Assembly: GCA_964630905.1 (NCBI GenBank)
Contig: CAZVWR010000004.1
Coordinates: 6,775-70,774 of the forward strand
Direction of reading: 5' to 3'
DNA from: an uncultured Spirochaetales bacterium
GTDB lineage: Bacteria > UBP6 > UBA1177
DNA length: 64,000 bases
In this document: piece after piece, positions 5,788-7,401 of the stretch
How the letters are laid out: each line of letters starts with the position of its first letter
Numbering within the stretch: position 1 is the stretch's first letter
Program-made: the position numbers and the translations under genes
The notes under the pieces: generated by a model
Seen by the model: only the letters and a program-made list of their open reading frames with translations
What the model was told of the DNA's origin: nothing
The model's database searches: none

Positions 5788-7401
5788 ATGAAAAAGTTTT
5801 TTGGTTTGTTTTTGATCGTTTCGATTGTTTTTATGGTTTCATGCGGAGATGATAACAAAAAAATCGTTCCTCAGGATGACAAGGACGCAACAACTGACAC
5901 AGATGAAATAACTGACGACACCGGCAACACGGGTGATACCGGCAACACAGGAAACACTGGCAACACCGGTGATACAGGCAATACCGGTGACACAGGTGAT
6001 ACCGGCAATACAGGTGATACCGGCAATACCGGCAATACAGGTGATACTGGTAACACAGGCAATACAGGTGACACTGGAAACACAGGTGACACTGGAAACA
6101 CTGGAAACACTGGTGATACTGGAAATACTGGAAATACAGGCGACACCGCAGATCCTTGTGCACCATGTGATCTGAGCAACAGAAAATGTGTTGAGCAGAG
6201 TGAAGTCTGGGTCTGTACAGGTTGCAAGGATGGATACTTTCAGAATGATGATGATTTCTGTGTTTTAGAGGGTGTGCTCGGTGCAGAGTGCGATTCTGCT
6301 GCGTATGCAGGAAAGGATTGTGACAGCGGAAAATGTGTTGACGGAGTATGCTGCAACGATGTATGTGACGGACTTTGCGAAAGCTGTAATGTTAGCGATT
6401 TTTATAAAGGAACATGCACTCCTTTCCTGGCAGGAACAGATCCTGATGATGAGTGTGAAGCAGGAAACACATATGATTGTGATCAGAACGGATTCTGTGA
6501 CGGACTCGGTGCCTGTCAGATGTATGATACATCAACAGTTTGTCAGACGCCGGTTTGTGTAGGAAATATATCAAAAGGCTCAGCATATTGTGACGGATCA
6601 GGAACTTGTGATCTGTCTAGTCGTCCTGAAGCTGATTGTGAACCATATACATGTGATATTCCTCAGGGAATATGTTCCGGAAATTCATGCTCTAATGACT
6701 TAGACTGTATTGCCGGATATTATTGTCAAGGCTCCACTTGTGTTAACAAAAAACCCAACGGAAGTTACTGTACTTCAAATAATCAGTGTTCATCAAATGA
6801 CTGTACACTTGATGATTTCGGTACAGACGGGTTTAAGTACTGTGTTCCTAATGCACCGGCACACTGTGCAAAGGAAAGTTCGTGGTATGTTGCAAATACC
6901 ACTTTCTGTGTGACAGCAGGCGGAACGACATATAAAAAATGTACACCCGATTTATGGGGAACAGCGATTAACTGCACAAATGTTGCAAAAAGAGGATGTG
7001 TTGTAGCACCATGGAAAACAAAGGCGGGATTCTATAATGCTGACTCATGTGCTGACACAGGAACTGGAGCAGTATGTAATGCAGATTCGACTTGTGAAGA
7101 GTGTGCTTTTGCCAGACTTATACTTATTCCAGGTGGAACAAAGCCGGTTTCTTACACAAGTGTATATAATTTCGGAACAACTGTATGCAACACTAACTGC
7201 AGAAGCAGAACAGGAATATTGGATGATAAAGTGTGTGCACAGGAGAGTACGACATCAACAACTCACCGCTGTGTAGAAGTTGAAGATTCAAAAGGGGCAC
7301 TTGTCGGTATATGTGTTGAACTGCTTGGTACAGGAGAGATATGTACTTTTAATGAGCAGTGCAAGTCAGGTTCCTGTTTTAAAGGCAAGTGCGCTCTATA
7401 A
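5788..7401 (+). CDS. Lipoprotein with a 25-copy (G-N/D-T) tripeptide array and a large Cys-rich C-terminal domain.
   Basis: The lipobox is [28 protein letters not shown] repeats follow, then about 45 Cys in CxxC/CxDxDC-type modules (e.g. [22 protein letters not shown]). It is a paralog of the gene at 58807. Confidence 0.75.
5923..6147 (+). repeat. Coding tandem repeat of 25 copies of 9 bp (GGN-AAY/GAY-ACN), encoding (GNT/GDT)25.
   Basis: Counted directly from the sequence. Wobble positions vary between copies while the peptide unit is conserved. Confidence 0.9.

Follow-up and report, generated by a model that had tools for sequence, protein, structure and literature searches.

A Pro-free G-[N/D]-T tripeptide array, most likely an interchangeable lipoprotein spacer, in an uncultured bacterium of the UBP6 lineage

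The DNA analysed here, referred to below as the window, is a stretch of 64,000 nucleotides from an uncultured Spirochaetales bacterium (positions 6,775 to 70,774 of contig CAZVWR010000004.1, assembly GCA_964630905.1). Three of its genes contain an in-frame array of a 9-bp unit that encodes a tripeptide beginning with Gly: gene A, for a lipoprotein with 25 copies of G-[N/D]-T; gene B, for a second lipoprotein with 23 copies; and, next to gene A, a gene for a secreted subtilase whose 16 copies are of a G-[N/D]-S form. The arrays are real, and comparison with relatives indicates that they are most likely one interchangeable version of the acidic, unstructured lipoprotein spacer of this lineage, and not a collagen-like element. 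The features of gene A and of the region immediately upstream are as follows.

5723..5750 (+): sigma-70-like promoter candidate TTGACA-16-TAAAAT, 5' of gene A, with 11 of 12 consensus matches; a consensus match only.
5776..5782 (+): Shine-Dalgarno sequence AAGGAGG, 5 nt ahead of the gene A ATG, read from the sequence.
5788..7401 (+): gene A, encoding a 537-aa lipoprotein that consists of a signal peptide, tether, G-[N/D]-T array and Cys-rich domain.
5788..5844 (+): predicted signal peptide and lipobox ..FMVS|C (Cys19), followed by GDD; assigned from the sequence pattern.
5845..5922 (+): acidic, Thr-rich, non-repetitive start of the tether, aa 20-45 (26 aa), with an AlphaFold predicted local distance difference test (pLDDT) score below 40.
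5923..6147 (+): the array, (G-[N/D]-T)25, 25 x 9 bp, aa 46-120, detected by TRF; pLDDT 29-39.
6148..7398 (+): Cys-rich ectodomain, aa 121-537 (417 aa), with 52 Cys; delimited by homology, alignment and AlphaFold.

The gene A array consists of 25 unbroken triplets with 15 Asn, 10 Asp, 25 Thr and no Pro. The lack of Pro, and the count of 25 copies of 9 bp with Asn or Asp at X and Thr at Y, had been given in the initial annotation of the window and is confirmed by the sequence and by TRF. The whole protein has 53 Cys. Lipoboxes, and with them type II signal peptides, were assigned by sequence pattern in A, in B and in their relatives; in an alignment of six A-family members, Ser18 is invariant and the lipobox Cys is kept in five, the sixth (P0005) having its lipobox Cys at another alignment position. 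An exact-sequence look-up of protein A found no identical record. Synteny around gene A is not kept in L001, L080 or L081, so that no operon-based function can be inferred for it.

Gene B lies some 53 kb from gene A and was described in the initial annotation as a paralogue with 23 copies of the repeat.

57196..58797 (+): gene for a FadL/TodX-family outer-membrane channel (PF03349), directly 5' of gene B.
58807..59946 (+): gene B, encoding a 379-aa lipoprotein with the start ..VSVS|CGDDKKET (Cys18) and a C-terminal beta-barrel domain unrelated to A.
58882..59088 (+): the gene B array, (G-[N/D]-T)23, 23 x 9 bp, from the sequence and TRF.

The count of 23 agrees with the assembled sequence, but the paralogy does not extend to the whole protein: the likeness of A and B is confined to signal peptide, lipobox 'SCGDD' and array, and the remainder aligns with a BLASTP E value of 0.48 or worse. 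The order of parts is nonetheless the same in both, with the lipobox Cys followed by an acidic stretch, the array and a folded domain. The pairing of the channel gene with gene B is kept in relatives (synteny in L084, L086 and L087). Between gene B and feoB there is a gene for a helix-turn-helix protein with an S24 peptidase domain, LexA/CI-like (60059..60697, +), which is not present in the otherwise syntenic L087.

The third array belongs to the gene adjacent to gene A, on the opposite strand.

3037..5568 (-): S8 subtilase, secreted, whose G-[N/D]-S linker lies close to the C-terminus; from sequence and Pfam.
3190..3333 (-): the subtilase array, 16 x 9 bp, G-[N/D]-S with one GNT, from the sequence and TRF.

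That this neighbour carries a Ser version of the repeat had been noted at first inspection, and the count of 16 triplets, one of them GNT, agrees. A Cys-rich region precedes the array, and a last TIGR02232 repeat with a GGCSVLLF tail comes after it. Its Ser codons are exclusively TCN; AGY codons account for 0 of 15, against 35% genome-wide. Such TCN-only usage fits one-step descent from the ACN codons of Thr rather than convergence.

At the DNA level, the gene A array comprises 16 distinct 9-mers among its 25 units, with variation confined to the wobble positions 3, 6 and 9 and to position 4, where an A/G switch exchanges Asn and Asp. Indeed, unit positions 1, 2, 5 and 8 show zero variation in all three arrays, and position 7 varies only once, in the single GNT unit of the subtilase. 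Wobble sites are saturated: across the three arrays the pairwise difference is 0.66-0.72 at four-fold sites and 0.50-0.53 at two-fold sites. The longest exact internal repeats, at 17-22 nt, are no longer than those in synonymous-codon shuffles, and therefore give no sign of recent slippage or gene conversion; codon order within the arrays likewise cannot be told apart from a random shuffling of synonymous codons. For arrays A and B, recent gene conversion from one to the other was considered and rejected, the longest string shared by the two being 17 nt against a shuffle mean of 19.3. Saturated wobble sites beside invariant non-synonymous sites point to selection on the peptide. These data support the view that the array peptide is under selection and is not a fresh product of slippage, and they bear out an argument originally made from the wobble-only variation alone.

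The family of gene B shows what happens to the spacer in orthologues. There are 66 homologues, and 63 full-length members with a recognisable lipobox were used for the spacer analysis. In 63 of 63 a spacer lies at the same place, between the lipobox and the domain, with a median length of 68 aa (range 32-169). The relatives' spacers are 25-45% Asp plus Glu, with Lys plus Arg at no more than 6% and almost no hydrophobic residues. Place and length are kept and sequence is free: at least five unrelated spacer types occur at this position, the variants seen including G-N-T, decayed G-N-T, non-repetitive acidic, NPTDEPT and DTDT sequence, and Gly at every third residue is found in one of the 63 spacers only, that of the window copy. 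A partial relative at 87% also has the array, with its start and end conserved and a scaffold gap in its place in the assembly, and in a 65% relative a G-N-T array is decaying through changes to Ile, Ala, Leu and Glu. The best relative shares 91% identity with B over the folded domain; its signal peptide is a different one, and its spacer is acidic and non-repetitive. Between the two loci, homology at the nucleotide level (81-83%) ends at 58782 and restarts at 59127, a break that brackets the signal peptide plus spacer, so exactly that cassette was exchanged. In an NPTDEPT spacer of a B orthologue, the variation between units is again mainly at wobble positions, with one Asp/Glu change, itself at a third codon position. 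The suggestion that the arrays might serve as flexible spacers fits these comparative data.

For the folded domain of protein A, only 18 homologues were found among 5.8 billion proteins. Five full-length orthologues (P0001-P0005) keep about 50 Cys positions and differ in their spacers, which are made of DTSDTGDTADV repeats, interrupted GNT/GDD, pure Asp/Ser, or TDTGTQLQDT repeats. The closest metagenome-assembled genome (MAG), JBMNFX01, moreover has a tandem paralogue of A whose spacer is built of GNTANSGDD units, with Ala for every third Gly. In a genome scan, protein A matched this one close MAG, together with Polyangia proteins in which the match is confined to the Cys module. That module, residues ~145-340 of A, is present as tandem copies in the Polyangia proteins, with 35-46% identity and E values as low as 1e-32; the rest of the domain, residues ~340-537, is limited to the five close orthologues. 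Its pattern is of the Polyangia/Myxococcota type (..CxSGxCxDGVCCxxxCxGxCxxC..GxDPxxxC..CDGxGxC..CxPYxC..), and of 15 invariant columns across 19 sequences 13 are Cys. No Pfam or NCBIfam model was found for it. The structure prediction proposed in the initial annotation for the Cys-rich domain gave a confident fold but no solved structural relative, a structure search returning no match to any solved structure. The same annotation had seen Cys modules common to this domain and the EGF/LRR lipoproteins at 14.3-18.2 kb; comparison of the domain with the 14.2-18.2 kb lipoproteins and with the subtilase gave no significant similarity (E 0.48, 0.56 and 3.9), homology was rejected, and what these proteins have in common is only a generic short motif of the CxNDxDCxxGxxCxxxxC type.

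Many such arrays also occur in metagenomes. Metagenome contigs were scanned for runs of eight GGN-RAY-ACN units, which gave at least 120 stretches, and 80 loci were kept for analysis. In 34 of these the array is downstream of a lipobox in the same open reading frame (ORF), on contigs of median 41% GC; such arrays have 8-33 units and stand as N-terminal tethers or between small Cys-knot domains. Another 16 are ordinary collagen-like proteins with mixed Gly-X-Y triplets, some very low in GC and viral-looking (GPTGNTG..), others high-GC small lipoproteins. The metagenomic lipoprotein arrays range from 1-3 distinct 9-mers, which would suggest fresh expansion, up to fully codon-scrambled. This range, from fresh through scrambled to decayed arrays, argues that G-N-T is a common linker version of one uncultured lineage, with a cycle of birth, persistence and decay and with exchange of cassettes. 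A literature search with the peptide strings GNTGNTG, GDTGNTG and GNTGDTG retrieved nothing relevant.

Taken with the anatomy of the proteins, these comparisons lead us to put at about 0.72 the probability that the array is the main part of a long, acidic, non-globular tether running from the lipidated Cys to the folded domain. A lipobox Cys is directly upstream; the region is of low complexity, with AlphaFold2 pLDDT values below 50 (29-39 over residues 16-119 of A, 32-41 over residues 1-94 of B, against ~90 in both folded domains); and length is kept while sequence is free. According to this model, a hydrophilic tether of ~75-105 aa would join the lipid-modified N-terminal Cys of an outer-membrane lipoprotein to its folded domain. 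Selection across the family would act on a spacer of roughly fixed length that lacks hydrophobic or basic residues and does not fold, and would leave the particular repeat free to vary, G-N-T being interchangeable with NPTDEPT, DTDT or non-repetitive Asp/Glu-rich sequence. Arrays would be born by slippage of the 9-bp unit and would then persist for long with only synonymous and Asn/Asp changes, the signal-peptide-plus-tether cassette being swapped between genes and lineages. The tether may give the folded domain distance from the membrane, or freedom to move around it, and it probably contributes as well to outer-membrane sorting or surface export, as would be expected from the linkers of E. 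coli lipoproteins, which are needed for Lol-dependent sorting and in which length and disorder matter and sequence does not (bioRxiv 10.1101/2021.01.05.425367). In the neighbouring subtilase, the array would act as an inter-domain linker.

The element is best explained as a known kind of tether or linker in an undescribed repeat version. Like the disordered tethers of E. coli RcsF, NlpD and Pal and of Borrelia and Neisseria surface lipoproteins, it follows the lipidated Cys directly, precedes a folded domain, is non-globular by prediction, and keeps its length but not its sequence among orthologues. Unlike them, it is ~75-105 aa long, biased to Gly, Asn, Asp and Thr, and a perfect tripeptide repeat under tight purifying selection. 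The Pro/Thr 'PT' and Ser/Thr linkers of secreted enzymes (PF04886, PF27998) offer a second likeness: NPTDEPT repeats occupy the G-N-T position in B orthologues, which are annotated as 'PT domain-containing protein', variation between units is mainly at wobble positions, and use between domains is seen in the subtilase and in metagenomic proteins. The window array differs in having no Pro, and its Gly at every third residue is what makes it score as collagen. Finally, the window sequence C-G-D-D-N/K-K, with a small or polar residue at +2 and then two Asp, resembles the acidic lipoprotein export signal of Bacteroidetes (C-X-K-(D/E)2, SDDDD), which drives surface exposure (PMC5080379); this is a resemblance only, and many family members read CGGGS or CGGDS instead.

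The obvious alternative is the one implied by the term 'collagen-like' in the initial annotation: a Pro-free triple helix in which three chains anchored together would make up a stiff stalk ~21 nm long, comparable to the (GAS)n of Bucl8 and the (GPT)n of BclA. Unbroken runs of 25, 23 and 16 Gly-X-Y triplets give all three proteins PF01391 scores above threshold (50.2, 49.8 and 31.4 bits against a cut-off of 27.2), a property they have in common with Scl1/Scl2, BclA, Lcl and Bucl8; NCBIfam collagen-adhesin models, by contrast, stay far under their cut-off (53 against 325). G-N-T and G-D-T triplets do occur within ordinary bacterial collagen-like proteins, BclA likewise has Thr in the Y position, a triple helix would impose the strict conservation of Gly and of X and Y that is seen here, and the single-triplet, Pro-free array (GAS)19 of Bucl8 gives a weak triple-helix signal in circular dichroism (PMC7682875). 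Bucl8, however, carries its array on an obligate trimer, and nothing comparable is visible for the window proteins, in which no trimerisation domain is recognisable beside the array and no coiled coil is predicted, and whose folded parts (Cys-rich domain, beta-barrel and subtilase) are unrelated. Among the traits of composition that stabilise collagen helices (Pro in X, charge pairs or glycosylated Thr), the first two are absent: the arrays have neither Pro nor charge pairs, Asp being the sole charged residue, with no Lys or Arg to pair with the 7-10 Asp of each chain. Nor is the periodicity kept in orthologues. The other 62 of 63 B spacers, that of the 91% relative included, have no Gly periodicity, and the A-family orthologues and the Ala-substituted paralogue break it too. 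'Collagen-like' is thus a valid description of the periodicity, whereas a conserved collagen element is not supported by the comparison, and we hold a triple helix to be very improbable. A still weaker case can be made for the array having no selected role, as a contingency repeat prone to instability or as an artefact of assembly. In the closest public relative, short-read assemblies do break at the array (a scaffold gap of N's takes its place at L084 3395..3494, and a second contig ends inside it, at L085 position 1), and some metagenomic arrays of identical 9-mers look freshly expanded. A 9-bp unit, on the other hand, never shifts the frame when its number changes, exact repeats of at most 17-22 nt offer little substrate for slippage or for assembly collapse, the purifying pattern is common to three independent arrays of the window, and the 87% relative keeps the array's start and end. 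This explanation is scarcely credible.

Several observations sit less comfortably with a simple spacer. None of the 64 units contains Ala, Glu, Lys or Pro, or Ser in place of Gly; Asn/Asp switches and one Thr/Ser change are the only replacements, and the residue constraint in the window arrays is much stricter than a spacer selected for composition alone should need. The window gene B spacer is also the least acidic of its family, with 13% Asp plus Glu; single-chain pLDDT values of 29-41 are uninformative on a structure that forms only in trimers; and both the first reading and the pattern scan select perfect arrays, an ascertainment bias through which the frequency of decayed arrays is underestimated. 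Possible reasons for the strictness include protease resistance, avoidance of labile Asn-Gly and Asp-Gly bonds, a modification motif, and a polyproline II (PPII) or triple-helical conformation; the first is prompted by the lack of Lys, Arg, Glu and hydrophobic residues in the array and by the secreted subtilase encoded next door. One way to accommodate the constraint is to regard the G-[N/D]-[T/S] arrays as a defined module, either a Pro-free stalk of PPII or collagen-like form or a motif dedicated to O-glycosylation or cation binding. Such a module would explain the fixed residues, the saturated synonymous sites and the exclusion from all 64 units of Glu, Lys, Ala and Ser-for-Gly, each one mutation away; we consider it unlikely. 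A more specific proposal, and in our estimate a distinctly unlikely one, is that the array serves above all to be modified, forming a mucin-like stalk on whose Thr or Ser residues a lineage-specific enzyme recognising G-[N/D]-[T/S] would place O-glycans. Recognition of this kind would account for the constraint at the residue level and would confer protease resistance. It is in keeping with a Thr or Ser at every third residue between invariant flanks, with the exclusion of Glu, Lys and Ala, and with the recurrence of the motif in dozens of lipoproteins of one lineage; moreover, the Thr-rich collagen-like region of BclA and the Pro/Thr linkers of cellulases are O-glycosylated. Yet no glycosyltransferase gene was found beside gene A or B, and orthologues function with spacers of other sequence. 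The Bacteroidetes O-glycosylation motif is D-(S/T)-(A/I/L/V/M/T) and the N-glycosylation sequon is N-X-S/T, and by eye the register of the repeat fits neither. The RTX nonapeptide, compared in the same way, does not match it either.

Several other parts of the window touch on these proteins. Near the C-terminus, the subtilase array is followed by a short tail containing Cys, and the same arrangement recurs in two further sequences: ..KKKTSGGCSVLLF, ..EQGCSAIIINNSNKE and ..EEVGCGCTIISGGWL (subtilase 3037..3100, -; L001 6236..9058; and P0113). The tails may act in sorting or lipidation, as a C-terminal signal not yet recognised; a transmembrane helix like that of MYXO-CTERM-type signals would not fit into them. 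Adjoining the subtilase gene, a lipoprotein-like ORF (1357..3036, -) combines ..YFAC and an acidic tether with PNGase F N- and C-terminal domains (PF09113, E 8.7e-21), which suggests that the two genes form a small glycoprotein-degradation cluster. Acidic tethers are not restricted to these genes. Three consecutive lipoproteins at 14157..20984 (+) have tethers of Asp, Ser, Asn and Glu, two of them with weak LRR/EGF-like matches and one with a full RCC1 propeller (PF25390, E 9e-101). A cobalamin riboswitch (RF00174, 38.7 bits; 40628..40741, +) precedes a TonB-dependent receptor gene and two more lipoprotein genes (region 40761..45051); the latter two, beginning at 42803 and 44005, encode acidic tethers, have no Pfam match and are candidate surface corrinoid-binding proteins. 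Judged from these sequences, an acidic tether after the lipobox is a genome-wide habit.

Elsewhere in the window, in-frame tandem repeats with periods of 9/18/27 bp and 15 bp (49382..49469 and 50385..50459, +) occur in the ORFs 49209..50042 and 50211..51479, where they encode low-complexity segments rich in Glu, Lys, Val and Pro; Pfam gave no match for either. The stretch 21818..29408 (-) encodes methylmalonyl-CoA mutase, MeaB, a carboxyltransferase and a Na+-translocating decarboxylase beta subunit, and a type IV pilus cluster is present at 29602..37491; this gene content fits a diderm that lives anaerobically and metabolises propionate. The 64-kb window contains no rRNA or tRNA genes.

These results have a practical side. 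A PF01391 score above threshold triggers the automatic label 'collagen triple helix repeat', which, on the comparative evidence, is misleading for tethers and linkers of this kind. Moreover, since the arrays break short-read assemblies, genes that bear them are likely to be under-represented in MAGs, or truncated or split there. Two points of more modest interest are the residue-level conservation of the G-N/D-T version and the 52-Cys ectodomain, which has no structural relative and only the 18 homologues noted above. For lipoprotein biology, the B family amounts to a clean natural experiment, in which 63 orthologues have kept the length of the spacer and exchanged its sequence, with cassette replacement at 91% identity. 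It lends support from outside E. coli to the rule that what a lipoprotein linker needs is length and absence of structure, not one particular sequence.
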